Notes under the pieces: generated by a model
What the model saw: the letters and a program-made list of their open reading frames with translations, nothing else
Databases searched by the model: none
What the model was told of the DNA's origin: nothing
Position numbers and translations under genes: made by a program
Part shown: positions 10,047 to 43,386 of the stretch, in pieces
Layout of the letters: each line of letters opens with the position of its first letter
Numbering within the stretch: the stretch's first letter is position 1
Source of the DNA: a virus
IMG/VR virus record: IMGVR_UViG_3300049893_001204
Location: 13,679-77,678 of that record
Reading direction: 5' to 3' (one strand)
Length of the DNA: 64,000 nt

Positions 10047-12977
10047 TTAACGCTTGCTACGTTTACCTAAGCGACGTTGTTTTTGTGCGTGCGCCTGACT
10101 AAGCGCATGTGCTATGCGCTCAGAAACCCGTTGATCATCGACAGAAAATGTTTCTGTTGTTCCAGGTGGTTCTATTTTAGCGCGTGCGGCTTGGCGTGCA
10201 GCTAATTCAGGATCAATTTCAAGAGCACGTGAGCTTTGAATGGCGGCCTCAATGTCTCCCCCGATAGTTTCTCCAAAATCATAAGCAGCTACAGTTTGAG
10301 CAACTTCTTCAGCAGGAGAAATTCTATCCATAGCCGACAAGCCACGTCGACCTTCTTGCATCATTCGACCAGTGGCACGAGCTTGTCCAGAGCCTCTTGC
10401 AGATAACACCGCCTGCCGTTGAACGTCTAGTGGATCTGCACCTTCTTGATTTGCAATATCTAAAGACATCTGCAAAAAGTCAGTACGCCTCATTGGCCGA
10501 CCAGATCTTTCGCGATAGTCAAGCATTGCAGCAGCAAGTCGCCTACCACCTATTTCTTCAGGAGAAATTTCTTTATTTATTGTGCGATATTTTACTTGAT
10601 CACCAATGTACTCCATTATCTCTTTTTCTTCATTCCATTCATAAACAGGCTCAGAAGATGCAGAAACCAAAGGAACAGTACGTTGCCTTGAAGGTAAAGT
10701 ACGAGAAGGACGTTCAGAAACACTAGCACCCAAACCATAACGCTCACTCAATTGGTCTGTTGCACCAGGTTCAAGAACTCGTTGGCGAGTAGGTTCCGCA
10801 ACTTGCGTAATAGTATTTGCAATTGTAAGTGCTTTATTTAAATAAGGGTTAGTAGAAGGTCCCCCAAGAAATTGACCACCTTTTTTCTGGTGAAGTGTAA
10901 GAGCAAGATCAAGATCTGCCAGCCTATTATTAGTTAGTGATTCGTATGCAGTTTGTACAGCCTGTAGATATTCATAATTATTACGCTTACCTTGTTGTAG
11001 GGTAGGTTCAAACTGACCAACATGACCAAGACCAAGCGTCCACGCCTTTGTTTCTTGTTCATCAATAATTTCAGGAACAGAATAACGAGTTTGACGCAGA
11101 TATTTAGCACCTTCTTCTGTTTGTGCTTCTTGAATCACGCCTTTTTGTAAAAGAATGTCTTGCATTTGAGAAGACAAAGTTGACTCATCAGTAGCAGACA
11201 AACGCTGATAAGGATCAACAAAAGTTTTACGCCGTCTTCCCGCTGGATCCGACAAAGCAACTTCTAAGGGGCCGCGATAAACTTCAGTTGTTTGAAGTTG
11301 TGTATTGATTTGTCCAAGTTGTTTTTGATTAAACTGTTCATGCACTTGATTTACAAACGCAGCAGCTTCTTCTGGTGATTGCCAGTATTTTCCAGTAACC
11401 GGATGTTTATAAAAGAAATTACCATACTCTTGATCAAGTCTTGTTTGTAAACGAGAATCACCAACTAAAGAAACTGGTTTTACTTTTGCGTAGATATTAC
11501 CATTTGAAGATTGGCCTACAAATCCTTGCTGAATATGTTCATCTACAGATAAAACAGGTAAAGAATCAACCTCACCAGAAGTGCCAGCACCTGAGCTGCC
11601 TCCAAATTCTTTTACGCCGCCAATGGCGTATCCAACACCCTGTCCTTTATAACGTTCAGTACCAGAACCTGTGGCACCAGGGGAGGCAACAAATTTAGCT
11701 ACTTCTTCCCTAGGAACAAAAGCAACAGCTTGCCCTACTTCTTCTCCAATGCCGGTTCCCGTCGAAGCATCTGGTGTACCACTTGTACCAATATCCGATT
11801 TACGGATTAAATTACCATATTCATCAAGATACAAAGGTTCGTAATCGCTAACGTCAAATTTGCCGGAAGCTCTCCTTGATATATTTACAACTTCAGGTTT
11901 GCCTTCTTCTCCTCTTTGCACAGTAACCACATCTGCTTGCGAGGCAGGTTTTGCAGACCAACCAAAACCACGCGATTGAATAGCTTGATAATCTCCTGGC
12001 TCTGTAACCAAATAATTTTTAATAGAGTCTTGATAATCATGAGCTAAAAGATTTTCACGTACGTGACGAGTAGCTGTAAAAACAGCATTTGAATCTTTGA
12101 AGGAAAGAACATTTCCTCTAGCATCTTTTATTGCACTAGACATTAATTGTTGTGCTATTGAACGAGGCACAACGTTATCATCTCCAAGATGATTAAGAAT
12201 CACCTCGGTACGAAGCATGCCACGATCATCAAATAGTTTTTGATTCCAATCGCGTGTTATTGGTGCTGGTTGACGTTGTTGCCTGCGTTCTTTTGCTTCA
12301 TTTAATGCTTGTTGTGATGATTTACCAGCTGTTTCCACTTGTGGCGTAGATAAATCATACCCACTTTGCTCCTCTCCGCTAAGGAGAGCATTTCTTACAG
12401 TATTTGCAAGTTCTTGATTTTGTTGTGCACGAACAGCTTTCCGTTCATTTAGCTTTGAAATATAAGAGGGGGATTCTGGATTACGTTCTTCAGAACTTTC
12501 AAGCATTTGCCGTGCTACACGATCGGCAATAGAACCAGGTCGATAAGGAGTTGTAGGACGTGGAATACTCCTAAGTTCTTCGCGTTCCCTTAAATCACGT
12601 AAAAACGAAGTAAGATTATCTTGCGCTCCAACAGGAGGCTCTTTGCTTGGTTGAACAGGCGTTTCCTTGTTAAGATTAGCAATTTCACGAACTGCTTCTT
12701 CACTTGATTGACGCCCGCTGACCAATTCTTCTGCTGCCGCTGGCTGGCGACGCAGCAAACTCCTGGCACCAAAGGCTCCAAGACCTGCAAGACCTAAGCC
12801 TGCCGCCGCAAGACCAAGGTTTTGGAGGAGATTTGACTCTTCGCGGGGGGCAACAAGCTGATTACGGCGAAATGCAAGGACTTCTGGGGCCATCTGAGCC
12901 CTTTCTTCCGGATCTTCTGGTACCGGGACACCTGTGGCACGGCTGTAGGCGTAGAAATCAGCAGGTGCAAGTACCAT
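10047..12977 (-). CDS. Large hypothetical protein (976 aa), likely virion-associated
   Basis: Long ORF with N-terminal hydrophobic Gly/Ala segment; no catalytic motif recognised. Confidence 0.6.
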   Translation of the reverse strand: MVLAPADFYAYSRATGVPVPEDPEERAQMAPEVLAFRRNQLVAPREESNLLQNLGLAAAGLGLAGLGAFGARSLLRRQPAAAEELVSGRQSSEEAVREIANLNKETPVQPSKEPPVGAQDNLTSFLRDLREREELRSIPRPTTPYRPGSIADRVARQMLESSEERNPESPSYISKLNERKAVRAQQNQELANTVRNALLSGEEQSGYDLSTPQVETAGKSSQQALNEAKERRQQRQPAPITRDWNQKLFDDRGMLRTEVILNHLGDDNVVPRSIAQQLMSSAIKDARGNVLSFKDSNAVFTATRHVRENLLAHDYQDSIKNYLVTEPGDYQAIQSRGFGWSAKPASQADVVTVQRGEEGKPEVVNISRRASGKFDVSDYEPLYLDEYGNLIRKSDIGTSGTPDASTGTGIGEEVGQAVAFVPREEVAKFVASPGATGSGTERYKGQGVGYAIGGVKEFGGSSGAGTSGEVDSLPVLSVDEHIQQGFVGQSSNGNIYAKVKPVSLVGDSRLQTRLDQEYGNFFYKHPVTGKYWQSPEEAAAFVNQVHEQFNQKQLGQINTQLQTTEVYRGPLEVALSDPAGRRRKTFVDPYQRLSATDESTLSSQMQDILLQKGVIQEAQTEEGAKYLRQTRYSVPEIIDEQETKAWTLGLGHVGQFEPTLQQGKRNNYEYLQAVQTAYESLTNNRLADLDLALTLHQKKGGQFLGGPSTNPYLNKALTIANTITQVAEPTRQRVLEPGATDQLSERYGLGASVSERPSRTLPSRQRTVPLVSASSEPVYEWNEEKEIMEYIGDQVKYRTINKEISPEEIGGRRLAAAMLDYRERSGRPMRRTDFLQMSLDIANQEGADPLDVQRQAVLSARGSGQARATGRMMQEGRRGLSAMDRISPAEEVAQTVAAYDFGETIGGDIEAAIQSSRALEIDPELAARQAARAKIEPPGTTETFSVDDQRVSERIAHALSQAHAQKQRRLGKRSKR

Positions 12978-13060
12978 GGCTAGCCTTATCTGTTTAATAT
13001 GACCAATATTTGTATTTTAGGATGGTATAGACTTAAAAGTACGCAGGAATTAGAAAACAA

Positions 13061-13273
13061 ATGGACGCCGGTACCAGGCAGAAGCGAGTAGAAGGGCTAG
13101 AAGCTATTAAAAATAAGGCGATGGAGATGGCAAAGTCCGGTAAAGACTCGCTAGAGGTACGTGATTTTGTTACAGAAGCAAGAAAAAGCCTTGCATACGA
13201 ACTTCCTGATGAAGAATCCTTCCAAAAAGCGAAGCAAGCAACCCTTGCTTACCGCAGAAGCAAAGGTGAATAG
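13061..13273 (+). CDS. Hypothetical protein
   Basis: 70-aa ORF followed by terminator. Confidence 0.6.
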   Translation: MDAGTRQKRVEGLEAIKNKAMEMAKSGKDSLEVRDFVTEARKSLAYELPDEESFQKAKQATLAYRRSKGE

Positions 13274-13298
13274 GGTATAAATACGATAAGTAATCAAC

Positions 13299-13323
13299 GC
13301 CGGGGATAACACCCCGGCTTTTT
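13299..13323 (+). terminator. Intrinsic terminator
   Basis: GCCGGGG-ataaca-CCCCGGC followed by T5. Confidence 0.8.
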
Positions 13324-13546
13324 GTTGAAAAGTTTGGGTAAGTCTGTATAAAACACTACATAAATAAAGGTTTTTATTTGGGAAGGGGCTCTTATATACC
13401 CCAAATAGGGAAAAAATTTATCTGGCGCTTCTCCCAACACCCACGCGAAGTGAAATGTGGGAAGAAAAAAAGAAAGGGTGGGTGGGTAAGTAAGAGTAAC
13501 GGGGGCTGCGCATCCGTACCACGCAGAGTTCCATCGCGTTCAGACA

Positions 13547-13849
13547 ATGCAATTGACCAAGGAAGAGCAGAAGTCTTATGACTTCGATACTCGCTGCCAG
13601 ATGGTGGCAAGTTACCTGCATGAAGGTAAGCCTGTATCCATGACTGCGAAGCAGCTAGCTTACTATGGCGTAACGCCGCACCAGGTTATAGCTGAGCTGG
13701 GTGGTTGGCTTCGCTCGGAAGAGCAAGAAGCCTGCTGGGAAGCTGAGCATTTATACGGCGGCAGCCGCCGCAAGCGAACATATGTTGTGTACTGCACCAA
13801 GGTGCAGGACAAGTATGTGTTCAAGGCTAAGGTAGCTGACTACGCTTGA
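13547..13849 (+). CDS. First early-region hypothetical protein
   Basis: 100-aa ORF at the start of the plus-strand block. Confidence 0.6.
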   Translation: MQLTKEEQKSYDFDTRCQMVASYLHEGKPVSMTAKQLAYYGVTPHQVIAELGGWLRSEEQEACWEAEHLYGGSRRKRTYVVYCTKVQDKYVFKAKVADYA

Positions 13850-13850
13850 A

Positions 13851-13890
13851 GGTTACCTCTACCCCTGGGCAACCAGGGGTTTATGTAGCC
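13851..13890 (+). ncRNA. Motif C copy 1 (partial)
   Basis: GGTTAC..ACCCCTGG-GCAA-CCAGGGGT..GTAGCC; third segment missing. Confidence 0.5.
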
Positions 13891-14018
13891 CTCACCCGCG
13901 TTTATTCCCCCATTTCTGATACGAATTCGTATCGCGCGCGATGGGTTTGGGTGTAAGGATGGTCTTCTGGAAGAAGACAGTCTATGCATTAGGTGCCAGA
14001 TATTTTATCATAGGTACA

Positions 14019-14043
14019 TGTCAAGCTGGACGTTAAACGTAGC
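14019..14043 (+). ncRNA. Motif B copy 1 (divergent pseudoknot)
   Basis: TGTC aa GCTG GACG TTAAAC g TAGC. Confidence 0.5.
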
Positions 14044-14068
14044 AGACAACTTGGCGGTCGTTCACGAT

Positions 14069-14102
14069 CTTGGCAGCTGCAATTCCGCAGTGTAAGTCCA
14101 AG
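14069..14102 (+). ncRNA. Motif A copy 1
   Basis: CTTGG CAG CTGC aattcc GCAG TGTAAGT CCAAG. Confidence 0.65.
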
Positions 14103-14312
14103 CTCACCAGGAGAACATTGTGGACTACACCGTTAACATCATCGAGCTTGACAACAACTACTTCCTTCAGGAAGTTTTTGCTGTCACTGAGTTCCAGTAC
14201 GTGGAACAGGTGACTGCAGGGCCGTTTCAGGCTCGATGGCAAGCAGACGTGCAACGTTCTGTTGCTTACCCCGCTTATCGGGGATTAACAGATGAGCATT
14301 GCCGTCTGCAAC

Positions 14313-14392
14313 ACTGAGCTGTAGTACTGCACATCTGTGCAGGGCCAGGTGCAACTCCTGGCCTCAGTTATTGCCTCCAGCGGAGATAGGCA
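14313..14392 (+). ncRNA. Motif D copy 1
   Basis: ACTGAG..GCCAGG TGCAACT CCTGGC CTCAGT TATTGCC hairpin. Confidence 0.55.
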
Positions 14393-14414
14393 CCGCACAC
14401 ACACGGAGAAACCC

Positions 14415-14660
14415 GTGAGCAACCGCGACCAGCACCACCTTGCTCCGCTCAACGGAGACGGCAACCTCCCAACCAGGGAAGAAGCCGGCGAGTACGTCTT
14501 TAACCAGTGCAAGCACTGGATGGAAGAAGGTCACTCGCAGGTGTTAACCCGCGACCAAGGTCTTCAGATTGCCTGCTGGGCATTGAAGATCGCAGGAGCT
14601 CAAGAGCTTCTGACACACGTTATTGCAGAGCTTGTTGAGCTTCCCGATAACTACTGCTGA
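14415..14660 (+). CDS. Hypothetical early protein
   Basis: GTG start downstream of motif D and GGAGA; the ORF-track start at 14337 falls inside the motif. Confidence 0.55.
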   Translation: MSNRDQHHLAPLNGDGNLPTREEAGEYVFNQCKHWMEEGHSQVLTRDQGLQIACWALKIAGAQELLTHVIAELVELPDNYC

Positions 14661-14725
14661 TCCGTAACCAAGCGGGTGGGCAGGTGCAAACCCTGCCCCA
14701 GTTATTGCCACCCACTGAGGGTGGC
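14656..14725 (+). ncRNA. Motif D copy 2
   Basis: GCTG..GGGCAGG TGCAAAC CCTGCCC CAGT TATT GCCACCC actga GGGTGGC. Confidence 0.55.
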
Positions 14726-14949
14726 CTAGCTCAAGTCAATGTCCATGATCAAGAACTGTTTCGTTGTTGTCTTCAACGGCAACGTTGTTGGTATGCATGC
14801 AACTGAGGAGGCAGCTGCTCAGCAAGTATTACAGTTAGCTGAGGAGTGGCAACTTCATGCCGACTGCGGAGCCGAAGTGCCAAAACCAGTATTGGTTGCA
14901 ATGTCTTTCAATGAATGGATGCAGCACGAAAGTGTTGTTGTATTCTGAT

Positions 14950-15003
14950 TTCTGCATCAAGCCCTGAGTAATCAGGGTTTCTTGCAGGACTCAACATCCT
15001 GTA
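14950..15003 (+). ncRNA. Motif C copy 2
   Basis: TTCTGCA..CCCTGA GTAA TCAGGG..TGCAGGA ctcaaca TCCTGTA. Confidence 0.7.
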
Positions 15004-15414
15004 TCCCACACCTCAAGTCAGTTCATGACTGCACTCAACATTCGTAAGAACATTGGCGGTCTGCTCCATGCTACTGCATCAGCAGTGGAGCAGATCAAGG
15101 TACCTACCAAGCAGCAGCTTAATGAGAAGGTAGATGAGTACCGCATTCGTGCGGCTGCACTCATCATGCCTAATGATGCTGCATTTGTTATTCCTGGAGC
15201 TAAGAAGTGAAGAACGATTTTACTGGAGCAGTAGTTGCCATTGCTATTGGCAACGGACTAGGCTTTCTTCTGTCCATTGCTGGACAGAAGATGATCAACA
15301 AGCATCAGATAGCTGTATGTCCGAGCAAACCTAATCATTCACTTGTGATGGTTAGGAGTGTAGTTGGTGACAGCTACTACTGCATTGCTGATAAGTACTT
15401 AGACAAGCACTGAC

Positions 15415-15468
15415 GTTTGCACATTCCCTTGTGGTAACACAAGGGTTTCTGCAGACCTCACGTCTGCA
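15415..15468 (+). ncRNA. Motif C copy 3
   Basis: GTTTGCA..CCCTTGTG GTAA CACAAGGG..TGCAGAC ctcac GTCTGCA. Confidence 0.7.
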
Positions 15469-15748
15469 CCAATTCAACTCAACCCAACTAGGACTATGTC
15501 TCCTGCAAGTGTTGAATATCTGTTGACCCAAGATGCCAGGTTGCTGGCACGCAGGGATTCAACGCCTGCCCATCCTGCTATCGATGCAGAGATTGAGGAC
15601 TGCCGTCAGGCAGCACTTGATCTTTACTTCAAGTGGCAAGATGGGACAGCACAGTTCCAGGAACTTACACCCTTTGTGGTGATCTTGGAGCGCAAGGTTG
15701 AATTAAACCGTGCACTCATCAAGTGGTTGAAGAACCACGAGGATTGAT

Positions 15749-15813
15749 TCCTGTACTTAACCCTACCTATTCCATGTGATAGGTGGGTTTTCTACAGGAC
15801 TTAACATCCTGTA
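15749..15813 (+). ncRNA. Motif C copy 4
   Basis: TCCTGTA..hairpin..TACAGGA cttaaca TCCTGTA. Confidence 0.7.
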
Positions 15814-15839
15814 CACCACAGCACAACTCAGCACTAAAC

Positions 15840-16238
15840 ATGACTGAAGCCATCAAGAAGTATGCAGACTTCCAGCAAGTCGTCTTTCACGGACGCATTG
15901 CATACATGGAAGCTGTCAACTATGACGGCAAAGAATTTCTTGCTGTTACGTTGATGCACACGTTGTCTGAGACAACGGATCTACGGATTCGTTTTACGAA
16001 TGGCAACGGTCTTTTAACTGCCTACCGCAACGGTAATCTTGTGGTTGGTCAGGAGCTTACCATCAGTGGTAACATCAAGGGCATCCGTGCTTTCTACATG
16101 AAAGAGGATGAGCTTGTGCCACTGAAGCATCCTGAGCTACAGGTCCGTTGCATGGGTTATGTCTTTGGTTCCAAGCCAGAGCAGAAACCTGAGGCAGTAG
16201 CAACAGCTGTGCCAACGCTGGAAGAAATTCCATTCTGA
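15840..16238 (+). CDS. SSB-like OB-fold protein (early)
   Basis: VVFHGRI...VGQELTISGNI beta pattern and acidic-aromatic C-terminus EEIPF; start reassigned downstream of motif C. Confidence 0.6.
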   Translation: MTEAIKKYADFQQVVFHGRIAYMEAVNYDGKEFLAVTLMHTLSETTDLRIRFTNGNGLLTAYRNGNLVVGQELTISGNIKGIRAFYMKEDELVPLKHPELQVRCMGYVFGSKPEQKPEAVATAVPTLEEIPF

Positions 16239-16239
16239 T

Positions 16240-16302
16240 TTCTGCACTAAACCCTGCCCATCGTTAGATGGGTGGGTTTTCTGCAGGACTCAACATCCTG
16301 CA
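16240..16302 (+). ncRNA. Motif C copy 5
   Basis: TTCTGCA..hairpin..TGCAGGA ctcaaca TCCTGCA. Confidence 0.7.
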
Positions 16303-16773
16303 AACAGTCTACCCAACATCTCAACACATGCGATTATCAATTGATCAACATGATATCGACGAAGCTTGTGCTGAGTTCGGTATTTCTCAAAGCGACTATT
16401 ACATAACGTGCACATCCAGTGCAATATATATGCACTGGGTAGCAACACCAGAGCAAATCAAGAAGTATTTTGAAACTGGACATTGTTGTTTATGCATAGA
16501 TATAGGAGGTGAATGGATAATATCTGATGAGGTAGAAGATTACAGAATGCCTAATCGTTTAACTGCATGCCGTTACATTCTTGATGCTTGATATGAAACA
16601 CATAGTTTCACTAGGCAACAACCGCTATGTACACCTCGATTCTTATGGTGAGTCTTCTAAGACTCGAGCCGTAAGTCAGGTGATGGTTGTTGCCTTTGCA
16701 CTTGTCATTGCCTGCATTACAGTGCCTGCACTGGTAGGCATTGACATTACCAACATCAACTCAACACAGAACC

Positions 16774-17124
16774 ATGACAACATTAAGCGTTAACACTGCA
16801 CTAATTGAAGAACGTCTGCAGCAGCTTATTACTGCACTCATCAAACAGTTTGATGAATACAGCAGACGAAACTATGGACATCCAAGTGATACTCATTACT
16901 TGTCCTTTGAGATTGTCAAAGGTACCAAGTATTACAAGCTCATTATGAGGCAAGGTACTGGTACATCGGTGCATGCATTTATCAGTCGTCAGACTGGTGC
17001 CATGTACAAACCAGCTAGCTGGAAAGCACCTGCCAAGCACGTCCGGTACAATCTGCTGGATGACACATCATTTGCTGAGTGTCTACGCAGAGCTGACTGG
17101 GCTGGTGGGTATCTATACCTATGA
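16774..17124 (+). CDS. Conserved phage hypothetical protein
   Basis: KYYKL...SVHAFI...TGAMYKPASWKAPAKHVRYNL signature, recalled from cyanophage proteins. Confidence 0.65.
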   Translation: MTTLSVNTALIEERLQQLITALIKQFDEYSRRNYGHPSDTHYLSFEIVKGTKYYKLIMRQGTGTSVHAFISRQTGAMYKPASWKAPAKHVRYNLLDDTSFAECLRRADWAGGYLYL

Positions 17125-17173
17125 GCTTTATCAGTATTCCAGGTAACTAACGTTTACCAGGAATCCAACTAAC

Positions 17174-17213
17174 TGCTGGGCATCCATGGATATACATGGT
17201 GTAAGTCCCAGCA
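17174..17213 (+). ncRNA. Motif A copy 2
   Basis: TGCTGGG CAT CCATG gatata CATGG TGTAAGT CCCAGCA. Confidence 0.75.
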
Positions 17214-17229
17214 AATCACAACTCCTCCT

Positions 17230-17607
17230 ATGAAGGGACGCATTTCAATCCTCAAAGAAGATCGCATCTGGCAGCTGAGAACACAAGGTTATTGCTATGA
17301 CACAATCGCACAGATTGTCAATTGCAAACCTGGTTCAGTTCCAGCTGCACTTAAACGTACAAGACAACGTCCACCACTGGCACAAGATCCAGTAAAACGT
17401 GGACGTGTACGTGGCTTTCTATCTGATGATCAGATCTCTGACATCAGAAAACGCAAAGCACTAGGTGAAACATTACATTCCATTGCAGGTGACTATCACA
17501 TTGAGATATCATCTGTGTGGAATATTGTAACCTACAACTCTTACAAGGAACCATCAGGTGATTCTGGTTACCCATTCAAGTTTGGTAACCGCCTGATGCA
17601 TGGTTAA
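17230..17607 (+). CDS. Tandem HTH DNA-binding protein
   Basis: GYCYDTIAQIVNC and GETLHSIAGDYHIEISSVWNIV helix-turn-helix patterns. Confidence 0.6.
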   Translation: MKGRISILKEDRIWQLRTQGYCYDTIAQIVNCKPGSVPAALKRTRQRPPLAQDPVKRGRVRGFLSDDQISDIRKRKALGETLHSIAGDYHIEISSVWNIVTYNSYKEPSGDSGYPFKFGNRLMHG

Positions 17608-17608
17608 T

Positions 17609-17640
17609 ACCTGGGCATCCTTATGGTGTAAGTCCCAGGT
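17609..17640 (+). ncRNA. Motif A copy 3
   Basis: ACCTGGG CAT CC ttat GG TGTAAGT CCCAGGT. Confidence 0.75.
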
Positions 17641-17887
17641 TGTTTACAACTCACACAAGTTTACTGCAATGGACTCAAATCAATTTGAAAATGACATTCC
17701 TTCTGATGCATTAGATGCATTAGCTGATCTTGCCTATGAGCAAGAAGAAGCAATGAGGGAAGAACTTAACCAACCGGAGGTTTATGATGACCAAACATGA
17801 CTACACCTTTGAGCAGGCATGGGATGATGGCGACATCATCATCATTCTGCTCACAATCATTTCACTTATCATCACGGAAATTGGATC

Positions 17888-18235
17888 ATGTCTAGTGCCA
17901 AGCACTCAACAGCAACAGCACGTAAGTGGATTGCTGTCTACAACACATTCAAAGAGTGTGTTGGCAGAGAACCAACCACCATCTGTGTCTACGAATGCAG
18001 CACTGCATATGGAGGACCACAAGAAGGAGGTTGGTACTACGAAACCGGCTGGCCGCTCAAGACGATCTGCGTCTTCTCCAAAAAGCAAGCCATCCGTGAA
18101 GCCATCCGAGCGGAAGCGGAAACCGAAGAGCAACTTGGTAATCGCAAAGACTATCTCGGATGGAACGCCTGGTGTGTTAACTTCGACGTTGAGTACGCCA
18201 AGCCGTACCCAGAAGAACGTCCTTACTATTGCTGA
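17888..18235 (+). CDS. Conserved phage hypothetical protein
   Basis: AYGGPQEGGWYY motif and PYY C-terminus. Confidence 0.6.
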   Translation: MSSAKHSTATARKWIAVYNTFKECVGREPTTICVYECSTAYGGPQEGGWYYETGWPLKTICVFSKKQAIREAIRAEAETEEQLGNRKDYLGWNAWCVNFDVEYAKPYPEERPYYC

Positions 18236-18823
18236 TACCAATGCAAACAATTGGACAGAATCTCACAATCAACCAGCGTAATCTATATCTGTATTACTTG
18301 AATCATAAGAAGAAGAACAAGAATGCCGTATGCTTTGTTCCAAAGATGCCAATGCAATCAACCCGCATGCAAGACTACTTGCGTGCGATAGAAGCTTTAG
18401 AAGAGAAGAAGCTTATAGCTGTGGACAGAAGCTCAGATAATTACACTGGCTGGATCATTCGAGATCCAAAATAATTACCAGGTAATGCCAGATAGATACT
18501 GGCCTACCTGCTACACAACCCACTGCTATTTAACACAACACCATGGCATTATCCCTTGAGCAACAACTGATTGGTGATCTGATGGGATACCAGCCCATGA
18601 CACCAGAAGAAGCTGCAAAACCAGCGGACACATCACTGTGCAACCGTAAGGTTGAGATGCGTGATGGCTGGCCTCACATCATGTGGCGTAAGGAATGGAC
18701 TCCAGTTCCAACGATGGAAGAGTTGGAGGAATGGACGTTTGATTCCGTATGTTTGACACCAGATGAAGATGAGGTGGAACCAGATGATGTACACTCGTGG
18801 CTTAGTATTCTTGGTTTAATCTA

Positions 18824-19204
18824 ATGCCTTATAAAGATCCGGACAAAAAGCGTGAGTATGATCGCATACGTCGTCAAACTCACAAAGACCAGATCGCCGG
18901 TAATAAACGTAAATGGTCAAATGAAAATCGTGACAAGGTACGTTTAAGAAGTCAACGGCGACGAAAAGAGGATCCAGATTATTTTAAAAGATATCATGCA
19001 AATCAAGACCCTATTAAACGCAAAGCTAGGCACATGATTACAAATCGTGTGCGATCTGGCAAAATGCCAAGTTGTTCAGTATTTACTTGTGCAGATTGCA
19101 ACAAGAAAGCTGAACATTACCATCATGAATCGTATGAACAATGGTGGGCTGTTGTTGCTTTGTGTCAAGAGTGTCATTACCGTAGACACCAAAAACCAAT
19201 TTGA
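18824..19204 (+). CDS. HNH-like/Zn-binding protein
   Basis: Basic N-terminus, CADC...HYHH...LCQECH. Confidence 0.6.
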   Translation: MPYKDPDKKREYDRIRRQTHKDQIAGNKRKWSNENRDKVRLRSQRRRKEDPDYFKRYHANQDPIKRKARHMITNRVRSGKMPSCSVFTCADCNKKAEHYHHESYEQWWAVVALCQECHYRRHQKPI

Positions 19205-19271
19205 TATTAGCAACAACTACGTGAGCCAGATCATCCGCATAGCTGGCTGCGTATACTGGGCATGATCTAAC

Positions 19272-19322
19272 ACTTAGGCATTCACATTATCACACTAGTG
19301 TTATGTGATGTAAGTCCTAAGT
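19272..19322 (+). ncRNA. Motif A copy 4
   Basis: ACTTAGG CAT TCACAT..ATGTGA TGTAAGT CCTAAGT. Confidence 0.7.
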
Positions 19323-19710
19323 ACACAGCTAACACAACACAACAACACCATGGGACGTAGCAAGAAATCTGATGGGCCCTCACCAGATTATCCCCAAGGT
19401 CTACACAATGTCACATTTAAAGACATTAGCGAAGATGATTGGTGGTTAATCATTCATCTGTTTGAAGGACGCATTGAATACTTTCAACGGAGGTTGAATG
19501 ACATCATGCAGACTGGAGACCCTGACTTGATGGATAACACAACTCAGTGGTACAGAGAATCAATTGCACGTCTGACCAAGAGACTAACTGAGTTTGAAGA
19601 TCAGATTAGTCCTGTTTACTTCAGACGTAAACGTGCAGAGAAAGCTGCGCGATGCAAGCAGTACAACCTACCTATTGACAAGAACGATCTAACAACTAGA
19701 ACTTGATAAG

Positions 19711-19740
19711 CCTGGGCATCCGTAAGGTGTAAGTCCCAGG
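19711..19740 (+). ncRNA. Motif A copy 5
   Basis: CCTGGG CAT CC gtaa GG TGTAAGT CCCAGG. Confidence 0.75.
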
Positions 19741-20976
19741 GTTTACAATCTATTCACAACATAACAACACCATGCCGCAAGATCAACTGCATTTTGAACC
19801 AGAGGTATTCCGTTCTTATAACGGTAATGAGGTTGTGCTTCAGATGAATGAAGCCAAACGCATTGACCTAATCATCAAAGAACTGCAGGCTATCTATGCA
19901 AGAGAGGAGAAACGTAATCACATGTACCTGCATTTTCCATATGAAGCACCAGAGCTTTTGTTGGAAGCCATTGAGCTGCTTGAGAAAGCAACTGAGTGGG
20001 GTGAACCATCAGATGGTTATCTGACAGGTGAACCACCACTGACTGCAGATGAAATGCACACAGCAGCATGGAAGCAGCACCAGGAGTTGCACTCATAAGT
20101 TGAGTAGTATTACTCACAGCATGAGTAGAGGGTGTACCCCCAGACCCCCAGAGGGTACCAGGGGGGCACCCTTATTTCTATAAGGTAAACCTATGTATCT
20201 AACCATTACACATTAGATACAACCCTTGACTACCCTGATAGACTACCCTCGTTCACTCATCTAACTTCACTTCACTTATGTCTGATCAATTACGTATTCC
20301 TGATTCAATAGATAACCAACGACTTGCTGCTATGCGTTTAGTTGCTCACCTTAAAGAGCAAGCAGATAAGTCAGGTGTTGGATTCATTGGGGGCTTTATT
20401 GCCCCCAATGGAGAAAAGTTTGTCATGTCCAATATGGATGATGAGGACATGCAGATGTTACTTCCTGATGAACTTCAGTGACAACCATGACAACTACACA
20501 CAAACTTATTGAACAAGTCATCAGCTCTTTCGAATTTGAAAAAGTGTTAATCACTATGCAAGCATTGGATTGGAAATGGAGAGATCCAAATACTAAAGAG
20601 ATGCATGTACCTACTATTGCTCGCATGAAAGCAATGGCAACAAACCTGTTGTTCTCATCGATAGAAAACACATGCTGTGGCTCTGGTGGTTTTGAAGCTA
20701 CATACACAGAACCAACAGAGCATGAGCCAGAGTCATTTGAACTCAAGTTTATTGTTACCGAAATGAACACAAATTCCAATGCCTAAGAAATCATCAATCA
20801 ATTTCGACAAGACAATCCTGGGATTTAACATTACAGAACATGGTGTTAAGTCTTATACCAAGTCGATCAAGCTTGGTCCATTCCAGGTAACATTGAATGC
20901 ACGTGACTCAGGTGTACGTGCGTCAGTAGCATTGCCTGGTACAGGATTGTCTAAACGAAACATTAAATTATTCTAA

Positions 20977-23766: not shown

Positions 23767-23841
23767 GCCGGCGTAGCCCAATCGGAAGAAGGCAAGTGAC
23801 TTAAAATCACTCAAGTACGAGTTCGAATCTCGTCGCCGGCA
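23767..23841 (+). tRNA. tRNA-Leu (anticodon TAA)
   Basis: GCCGGCG/CGCCGGC acceptor, AGTGA-CTTAAAA-TCACT anticodon arm, ACGAG-TTCGAAT-CTCGT T arm, A discriminator. Confidence 0.85.
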
Positions 23842-42497: not shown

Positions 42498-42569
42498 AGC
42501 TGGATAACAGATTTGAACTGTTGGCCTGAGATTTACAAAATCCCTGCTCTACCACTGAGCTAATCCAGC
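42498..42569 (-). tRNA. tRNA-Thr (TGT)
   Basis: GCTGGAT acceptor, GGGAT-TTTGTAA-ATCTC, AACAG-TTCAAAT-CTGTT. Confidence 0.9.
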
Positions 42570-42572
42570 ACA

Positions 42573-42646
42573 TCGGAATGGTAGGATTTGAACCTACGGC
42601 ATGTACGTCCCAAACGTACCGCTCTACCAAACTGAGCTACATCCCG
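42573..42646 (-). tRNA. tRNA-Pro (TGG)
   Basis: CGGGATG acceptor, GTACG-TTTGGGA-CGTAC, GTAGG-TTCAAAT-CCTAC. Confidence 0.9.
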
Positions 42647-43316: not shown

Positions 43317-43386
43317 AGTGACCCCCAGGTTTGTGCATCGTTGAGAGGCATAGGGGGTATTGCTGTACACAGTATAACAGCTTAAA

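Follow-up and report, generated by a model that had tools for sequence, protein, structure and literature searches.

What purpose is served by an RNA segment that can pair with either of two neighbouring segments, and that recurs between one small gene and the next? This question is raised by Motif C, an element present in five copies, all on the gene strand, within a 64-kb window (positions 13,679 to 77,678) of the 77.7-kb IMG/VR virus record IMGVR_UViG_3300049893_001204 (CheckV completeness 98%). In the phage collection, Synechococcus phage S-EIV1 is the sole isolate related to this virus; it shows 72% identity over parts of the Motif C region, and its lineage is widespread in fresh water and almost wholly unannotated. 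Early gene expression in cyanophages is little understood, and Motif C offers a direct handle on the processing and stability of mRNA in cyanobacteria, for which the rules governing RNase III, RNase E and RNase J are poorly defined.

Read from its 5' end, Motif C begins with the UGA stop codon of the upstream gene, followed by one pyrimidine (A in copy c0), a 7-nt segment X of the form NNCUGCA and a pyrimidine-rich spacer of 2-5 nt. The middle is occupied by a GC-rich hairpin of variable length with a GUAA, GUUA or UUCG loop, and after it comes a U- or pyrimidine-rich spacer, typically UUUUC. The 3' half consists of X' (UGCAGNN), one pyrimidine, UCA, a few nucleotides and a further segment, Xd (NNCUGCA or NNCUGUA); beyond Xd lies a G-poor leader of 17-30 nt and then the AUG of the next gene. 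In the RNAfold minimum-energy structure, which is common to all five copies, X pairs with X' and the upstream UGA itself pairs with the UCA after X' across a 1x1 mismatch, lengthening the lower stem that encloses the GC hairpin (Table 1). The loop of this upper hairpin is a GUAA or GUUA tetraloop in three of the four full copies of the window and measures 6 nt in c3. The initial annotation of the locus had described four X/X'/Xd triplets, beginning at 14950, 15415, 15749 and 16240, and a partial copy at 13851, with a GC-rich hairpin and a U-rich tract between X and X'. All four triplets are present as quoted, the hairpin and tract are found in the window copies, and the partial copy, c0, does possess X, hairpin and X' while its downstream partner is absent. 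In c3 a compensated change from G-C to A-U is present in X, X' and Xd alike. A 21-mer core of the element has three matches in the window at up to three mismatches, against 0.00 expected, and the covariance model described below assigns the window copies E values of 1e-12 to 1e-14, c0 being weaker. Chance is therefore excluded.

The distribution of Motif C among related phages was established with a covariance model built from 11 copies checked by hand; the long hairpin was the sole structure supplied to it, and the Xd columns were left unpaired. The search returned 123 matches at E <1e-4, 94 of them distinct, in 46 related viral contigs, S-EIV1 and the window. Whole-genome scans reveal that each phage has one to five copies, in every case grouped within some 2.5 kb of the early region; the present phage has the highest number (five) and S-EIV1 has one (KJ410740 42655-42717, minus strand). 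The element flanks the orthologue of a 132-aa gene, which in the window lies between c3 and c4, in S-EIV1 and in the IMG/VR relatives. Rfam 15 held nothing relevant at E values up to 1 in 12000-20000, and the only matches in the window to reach their gathering scores were tRNAs and an abiF RNA elsewhere. Nor was any description of Motif C found in the literature on cyanophages with RNase III and on S-EIV1. That Motif C constitutes a new structured-RNA family of the S-EIV1 cyanophage lineage is well supported by these sequence comparisons.

Evidence that the pairings themselves are maintained comes from the alignment of the 94 distinct copies. For the long hairpin, 95.1% of the X:X' cells are paired, as are 97.1% of the UGA:UCA cells and 99.7% of those at the base of the upper stem. 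Cells changed on both sides number 206, compared with 54 +/- 6 in shuffled alignments; none of 500 shuffles reaches the observed pairing score, and sliding the partners by 1-3 columns lowers the paired fraction to 37-57%. The second base of the stop codon and the base opposite vary together (G-C in 78 copies, G-U in 8 and A-U in 6) and the variants UGA:UCA, UGA:UUA and UAA:UUA all occur in the family; thus the stop codon is truly part of the helix. The UGA is retained in the helix even where it is not the actual stop. The second helix, X':Xd, is 89.7% paired even though the Xd columns were modelled as unpaired, its six inner pairs reaching 91-100% each and about 97% overall. Double changes number 34 and 29 at its two variable positions, and again no shuffle of 500 attains the observed score. 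The three-way covariation noticed in the window extends to the homologues: in 77 of the 94 copies the two most variable positions of X' can pair with X and with Xd alike, over nine classes of X' dinucleotide, and the inner X' changes UACAGGA, UGUAGGC and UGUAGCC are matched in both X and Xd. These counts are of sequences and not of independent events; they comprise about twelve distinct compensated states, and more than one such state is seen at the orthologous site that precedes the 132-aa, SSB-like gene. In some relatives the X':Xd hairpin reaches 11 perfect pairs, since the entire UGA-N-X string recurs there in the downstream arm. One X:X' position is G.U in 41 of the 94 copies, and the same X' base is G.U with Xd in only two. 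The covariation of the aligned sequences supports the view that X' has two conserved and mutually exclusive partners on the plus-strand RNA and that both helices are under selection.

A separate regularity concerns the 1x1 mismatch between UGA:UCA and X:X', which is almost always of like-with-like pyrimidines (C/C 40, U/U 32, U/C 15, C/U 0).

The same comparisons bear on whether Motif C acts as RNA at all. It could mark module boundaries at the level of DNA, as recombination sites that shuffle the small early genes (compare the T4-type PeSL cassettes and integron attC sites), the RNA folds being incidental. The copies do flank small genes of unassigned function in a variable early region, and their number ranges from the single copy of S-EIV1 to the five found here. 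Such an origin is nonetheless very improbable. All 123 strong matches lie on the gene strand, where they score 29-65 bits against 14-28 bits for their reverse-strand echoes, so that even copies scoring 50-65 bits fall to 14-28; the many G.U pairs of the two helices would be A.C on the opposite strand. In addition, the spacing to stop and start codons is tight, and the compensatory changes preserve pairing rather than sequence.

If both helices are selected, which of them prevails? The initial annotation had called the element bistable, with two nearly isoenergetic folds, and partition-function folding contradicts this. When one helix or the other is imposed, the long fold comes out ahead, on average by 3.5 kcal/mol over the whole family and by 2.5-5.8 kcal/mol in the window copies (-26.5 for the long fold against -20.7 kcal/mol for the alternative in c1, a gap of 5.8; -26.0 against -23.5 in c2, gap 2.5; -25.2 against -21.6 in c3, gap 3.6; -33.3 against -29.6 in c4, gap 3.7). 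The equilibrium probability of X:X' is 0.96-0.99 in the window and 0.89 across the family, whereas that of X':Xd is 0-0.014 in the window (0-1.4%), and the alternative fold exceeds a probability of 0.5 in only five of 94 family members. Masking the first 13 nt changes this outcome, the mean probability of X':Xd across the family rising from 0.08 to 0.94. After a hypothetical cut 1 nt before X', the separated and refolded fragments are better than the held duplex by 4.7-7.3 kcal/mol at 1 uM, and the proposal that X' would refold onto Xd once the RNA is cut just 5' of X' is borne out energetically. X and X' are transcribed before Xd, and the long fold should therefore form first. Because the long fold wins and the alternative is barely populated, the conserved X':Xd pairing makes sense only after a trigger that removes X. 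In terms of these folding models, Motif C is a triggered switch and not a thermodynamically bistable one.

One candidate trigger is the ribosome that terminates on the upstream gene. In 67 of 98 distinct copies the first triplet of the element (UGA, UAA or UAG) actually terminates an upstream open reading frame (ORF) that is 30 codons or longer; another 13 copies have their stop 4-5 nt before the element, and the remainder 7-29 nt before it. The statement that X starts 1 nt after a TGA stop thus describes all five copies of the window and is too strict for the family. A ribosome terminating at offset 0 would unwind most of X:X', and a ribosome-driven flip is plausible on geometric grounds for about two thirds of the copies. 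It has to be considered, then, whether translation operates the switch with no obligatory cleavage: the terminating ribosome would unwind UGA-N-X, X' would snap to Xd, and the RNA would relax after the ribosome has left. The state of the fold would then signal that the upstream gene is under translation, the output perhaps being exposure to RNase E of the U-rich linker that joins the two hairpins, or a standby region for the next cistron. The position of the stop codon, its covariation with its partner and the effect of masking the first 13 nt are all in keeping with this possibility, which is unlikely rather than negligible. It lacks an output platform, however: the unpaired probability from -18 to +12 around the AUG is 0.614 in the long fold and 0.623 in the alternative (86 elements), and no terminator (hairpin plus U-tract) follows Xd in the window sequence. 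For the same two reasons the attenuator reading has no output to act on; of the translation-coupled attenuator proposed in the initial annotation, the flip on masking X is supported and the attenuation is not. Furthermore, the 16 copies whose stop lies at least 7 nt upstream retain an equally intact X':Xd helix (at least five of the six pairs in 16 of 16), and c0, despite its lack of Xd, keeps its paired stop and long hairpin, so that this structure serves a purpose in its own right. The terminating ribosome is likely a helper rather than the sole trigger.

The downstream side of the element is no less regular. In 84 of 93 copies Xd and the next ATG are 17-30 nt apart (median 23). No gene follows closely on the five copies that lack Xd (c0 and its orthologues in relatives), and in c0 the probability of X':Xd is 0.02 even with X masked. 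Xd is thus tied to a nearby downstream gene and is therefore a feature of the leader of the downstream cistron, the long hairpin having its own function. The leaders after Xd, among them 15469-15495, 15814-15839 and those of most relatives, are nearly G-free and repeat UCAACUCAAC-like strings; they mostly have no Shine-Dalgarno sequence and may have a role of the translation-enhancer type.

Several other functions were considered and rejected. Recoding of the stop codon (selenocysteine insertion sequence (SECIS) or readthrough) fails in that the frame past the TGA closes after four codons in c4, eight in c2 and 19 in c3, and is out of phase in c1. Rho-dependent polarity on the C-rich, G-poor leaders was set aside because cyanobacteria are not known to possess Rho. 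A pyrimidine-motif triplex of X, X' and Xd was rejected by reasoning, as X and Xd run in the same direction with respect to X' and X' also contains pyrimidines. A scan for promoters within Motif C gave no sigma-70-like site.

The genes to the left of 12977 are on the minus strand, and from about 13060 there is a long run of small plus-strand ORFs, of which those around Motif C have no Pfam or PHROG match. Elsewhere the genome encodes a DNA polymerase A, a primase-helicase, a terminase and others, according to a Pfam scan of the large ORFs. There was no Pfam match to an RNA polymerase among the 10 large ORFs scanned (two of which had no match of any kind), and a phage-encoded RNase III was looked for and none was found. 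The Motif C region is therefore best read as a host-transcribed early operon of an S-EIV1-like cyanophage. Cyanobacteria possess one to three RNase III genes in addition to RNase E and the 5'-exonuclease RNase J, and in Synechococcus PCC 7002 the two canonical RNase III enzymes cleave many substrates of the E. coli enzyme (PMC10989914).

Motif C has the build of a bacterial RNase III site. Such sites span about two helical turns, and an internal loop limits cleavage to one strand and one phosphodiester, leaving a protective 3' hairpin (PMC1540722). The long hairpin of Motif C comprises 14-44 bp, and its 5' arm, counted from the U of UGA to the apical loop, covers at least 19 positions (median 22, maximum 61), a length that attains two helical turns. 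Between X:X' and the upper stem there is, in all copies of the window, a pyrimidine-rich internal loop of 2x2 to 4x4, the second structural feature of these sites. The T7-like geometry proposed for the element is thus supported: it has a 5' arm of at least 19 positions, a pyrimidine loop, a GC-rich upper stem whose 3' side is U-rich, and an intercistronic place. By analogy, the reading preferred here, held tentatively, is that Motif C may be a T7-like intercistronic processing site of the RNase III type, whose 3' product would refold into a protective 5' hairpin. Held with slightly less assurance is the fuller proposal of a self-capping site, in which cutting, helped by ribosomes at the paired stop, would switch the RNA to a 5'-terminal hairpin that hides the 5'-monophosphate from RNase E and RNase J.

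The sequence of events may be pictured as follows. The GC hairpin would fold during transcription; X' would then pair with X, and UCA with the upstream stop, the long hairpin forming by default as covariation and energetics indicate. A host endonuclease specific for double strands, of the RNase III type, would cut the 3' side at or near the internal loop, as the T7-like build suggests. X' would leave X and pair with Xd, a pairing that is itself selected and whose timing after the cut is presumed; the release of X' would be eased by the frequent G.U pairs of X:X' and perhaps also by ribosomes terminating on the paired stop. The upstream message would retain the GC hairpin, probably as a 3' protector. 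The new 5'-monophosphate end of the downstream message would lie in a hairpin about 23 nt before the AUG and could be shielded there from RNase E acting in its 5'-end-dependent mode and from RNase J. The hosts carry both of these enzymes, and therefore a 5'-monophosphate product would need protection.

A number of considerations weigh against this account, in which the nuclease and its cut, the sequence of steps and the protection of the ends are all inferred. A search of public sequencing runs brought up DNA metagenomes and no RNA dataset. The upper stems range from about 6 to more than 20 bp, and an enzyme that measures from the loop would cut at differing places. The proximal and distal box determinants and the antideterminants have been defined only for the E. 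coli enzyme (PMC1540722). In 68% of copies the element opens with the upstream stop itself, a larger share than compaction of the genome by itself would call for, which hints at a role for the ribosome. The conserved CUGCA/UGCAG core, together with its pyrimidine mismatches, could instead be the recognition site of a protein. Finally, 3-5 U follow the GC hairpin in 78% of copies, and partial intrinsic termination could produce 3' ends with no nuclease.

The last of these points leads to the possibility, somewhat less likely again than a translational switch, that Motif C is a leaky intrinsic terminator combined with stabilisers. The GC hairpin and U-tract would halt a fraction of the host polymerases, grade the operon and leave a 3' protector, while X':Xd would be a 5'-untranslated-region stabiliser or standby structure and X:X' would compact the read-through RNA against nucleases. 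A GC stem closed by a UUCG or GNRA loop is typical of hairpins that serve as stable terminators or stabilisers, every copy has the hairpin, the longest U run is 3-5 in 74 of the 94 copies, and the upper hairpins of c3 and c4, and only these, pass a loose terminator scan. In the other 20 copies, however, the longest U run is at most 2, with tails of the CUCUC or CUCCC type. The decision to terminate would moreover precede the transcription of X', which leaves the selection on X:X' and UGA:UCA unexplained, least of all explained in c0, and gives no reason for X' to need two partners.

Protein recognition, for its part, would make Motif C the operator of an RNA-binding protein, of phage or host, that recognises the CUGCA/UGCAG stem with its pyrimidine mismatches or the hairpin beside the leader. 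The neighbouring SSB-like protein could, for example, act like T4 gp32 on its own leader and control the translation or decay of early messages. Several observations agree with this: the stem core and mismatches are conserved in sequence beyond the needs of pairing, the leaders are G-poor and unstructured, a palindromic hairpin of 16 nt, conserved to the last base, caps the upper stem in some relatives, and the gene that c3 and c4 flank in all relatives encodes an SSB/PriB-like OB fold. This last association is partly forced by the way in which the relatives were collected. Binding alone needs no two exclusive helices, the neighbouring early proteins have no Pfam or PHROG match, and no RNA-binding protein was identified, all of which makes an operator improbable.

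Should the cut-and-refold account be correct, Motif C would offer synthetic cyanobacterial operons a small natural module with which to insulate and stabilise their cistrons. It would also be a clear case in which three-way covariation brings to light the path along which an RNA folds and not just one structure. Were the self-capping proposal true as well, every cistron of the early polycistronic message would become an independently stabilised mRNA. We know of no cut-and-refold module of this kind that has been described for the processing of phage mRNA.

Table 1. Copies of Motif C, with their parts, and other features of the region; positions are those of the window unless a relative is named.
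Feature	Positions	Strand	Parts and remarks
c0, long hairpin only	13847-13894	+	TGA 13847-13849; X 13851-13856 GGTTAC; X' 13885-13890 GTAGCC; TCA 13892-13894
c0, upper hairpin	13862-13879	+	CCCCTGG-GCAA-CCAGGGG, then TTTAT; covariance score 37.8 bits, E 3e-7
c1	14946-15003	+	TGA 14946-14948; X 14950-14956 TTCTGCA; upper hairpin 14959-14980, loop GTAA; X' 14983-14989 TGCAGGA; TCA 14991-14993; Xd 14997-15003 TCCTGTA; next ATG 15025; 63.1 bits
c2	15411-15468	+	TGA 15411-15413; X 15415-15421 GTTTGCA; upper hairpin 15426-15445, loop GTAA, then TTTC; X' 15450-15456 TGCAGAC; TCA 15458-15460; Xd 15462-15468 GTCTGCA; next ATG 15496; 59.2 bits
c3	15745-15813	+	TGA 15745-15747; X 15749-15755 TCCTGTA; upper hairpin 15759-15789; X' 15793-15799 TACAGGA; TTA 15801-15803; Xd 15807-15813 TCCTGTA; next ATG 15840 (SSB-like gene); 58.1 bits
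c4	16236-16302	+	TGA 16236-16238; X 16240-16246 TTCTGCA; upper hairpin 16249-16279, loop GTTA; X' 16282-16288 TGCAGGA; TCA 16290-16292; Xd 16296-16302 TCCTGCA; next ATG 16328; 65.3 bits, best match
G-poor unstructured leaders, Xd to start codon	15004-15024, 15469-15495, 15814-15839, 16303-16327	+	
Orthologous copies without Xd, in relatives	L031:405, L052:1162, L050:68, L010:617		
132-aa gene (SSB-like)	15840-16238	+	between c3 and c4
16-bp palindrome	13918-13933		GATACGAATTCGTATC; 23 nt after c0
Same 16-mer in relatives	L010:2989-3004, L013:2921-2936, L019:2906-2921, L039:2893-2908, L046:2408-2423, others		
Second intergenic motif	14343-14385, 14678-14719		GGCCAGG-TGCAA-CTCCTGGCC, then CAGTTATTGCC and another hairpin
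Third intergenic motif	14090-14103, 17199-17212, 17626-17639; L001 ~6040, ~6760; also S-EIV1		invariant GTGTAAGTCC(C/A)AG
Intrinsic terminator	13299-13318	+	GCCGGGG-ATAACA-CCCCGGC, then TTTTTG; after 70-aa ORF 13061-13273
abiF RNA (Rfam)	43321-43357	-	52 bits, gathering score 37
tRNA genes (three, in this and the next row)	23767-23841	+	
	42498-42646	-	

The 132-aa gene has no Pfam or PHROG match. Its predicted structure (pLDDT 80) resembles an SSB/PriB-like OB fold (Foldseek E 3e-4 to 2e-3, TM 0.45-0.56), and the predicted protein ends in ...EEIPF, resembling the C-terminal tip of bacterial SSB. The perfect palindrome of 16 bp stands isolated in the window. In relatives the same 16-mer forms the tip of the upper hairpin of Motif C, in seven of 94 distinct elements and 24 of 55 loci; that it is kept exactly while the stems around it vary suggests, as judged from sequence, that a protein binds there, on RNA or DNA. 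Two further intergenic motifs are present. A copy of the second one (14657-14725) has 81% identity to a stretch in the T7-like cyanopodovirus S-SBP1 and in a Mediterranean fosmid, so this motif crosses phage lineages; the third recurs within the window and in relatives. Upstream of all Motif C copies lies a canonical intrinsic terminator, and the transcription unit of the Motif C genes may start downstream of it. The abiF RNA and the three tRNA genes lie elsewhere in the window.

Among known systems, Motif C is classed with the phage intercistronic processing or stabiliser hairpins, from which its built-in alternative partner sets it apart. It shares with terminators and with the C(UUCG)G intercistronic stabilisers of T4 a GC stem with a UUCG or GNRA loop after a stop codon and, in most copies, a U-rich sequence behind it. 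Unlike those hairpins, it has a covarying lower stem that encloses both hairpin and U-tract, it has a second, alternative helix, and one copy in five has no U run. The X':Xd hairpin in turn resembles the 5' stem-loops of the ompA type, for it borders an unstructured leader on its 5' side, 17-30 nt ahead of the AUG, and would lie 0-3 nt from the new end if the cut falls in the internal loop. It differs from the ompA type in that it would form only once its 5' arm leaves another helix.

The closest structural parallel is provided by the early intergenic regions of T7, which were folded for comparison from the GenBank record (NC_001604). In the predicted folds, the regions holding R0.5, R1.1 and R1.3 (sites as named and placed by Dunn and Studier 1983) have an upper stem that is rich in GC, about 10-13 bp long and succeeded by U-rich sequence on the 3' side (GGCCUUUAUGAUU for R0.5 and R1.1, GGCCUUAGUCAUUU for R1.3). 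In R0.5 (record 1431-1498) the hairpin sits within a lower stem that has the UGA stop of gene 0.4 at its base, paralleling Motif C. The T7 sites (R0.3, R0.5, R1, R1.1 and R1.3) are, like Motif C, intercistronic in a host-transcribed early operon and combine a lower stem and internal loop with a GC-rich upper stem, a U-rich 3' side and a helix of about two turns. Single-strand cleavage of the T7 sites leaves a 3' hairpin that protects the upstream message (PMC1540722). The two show no sequence similarity, and Motif C has no Rfam family and would be cut by a cyanobacterial enzyme. Cleavage is proven for the T7 sites and is presumed for Motif C. The T7 sites, moreover, have no conserved second partner, whereas the Xd of Motif C covaries with X' at a fixed distance from the next AUG.

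For that second partner the nearest conceptual precedent is found in the hok/sok mRNAs, in which one segment has two covarying partners and a default fold is replaced after nucleolytic processing; "coupled covariations" and refolding triggered by processing have been described for the hok type (PMC9841398, citing Gultyaev et al. 1997, 2000). In hok, refolding is set off as a long-range 5'-3' pairing is slowly trimmed from the 3' end, and its outcome is that a toxin is translated. The switch of Motif C is otherwise: it is local (60-130 nt), it is repeated between several genes, and it involves no sequestration of a ribosome-binding site.

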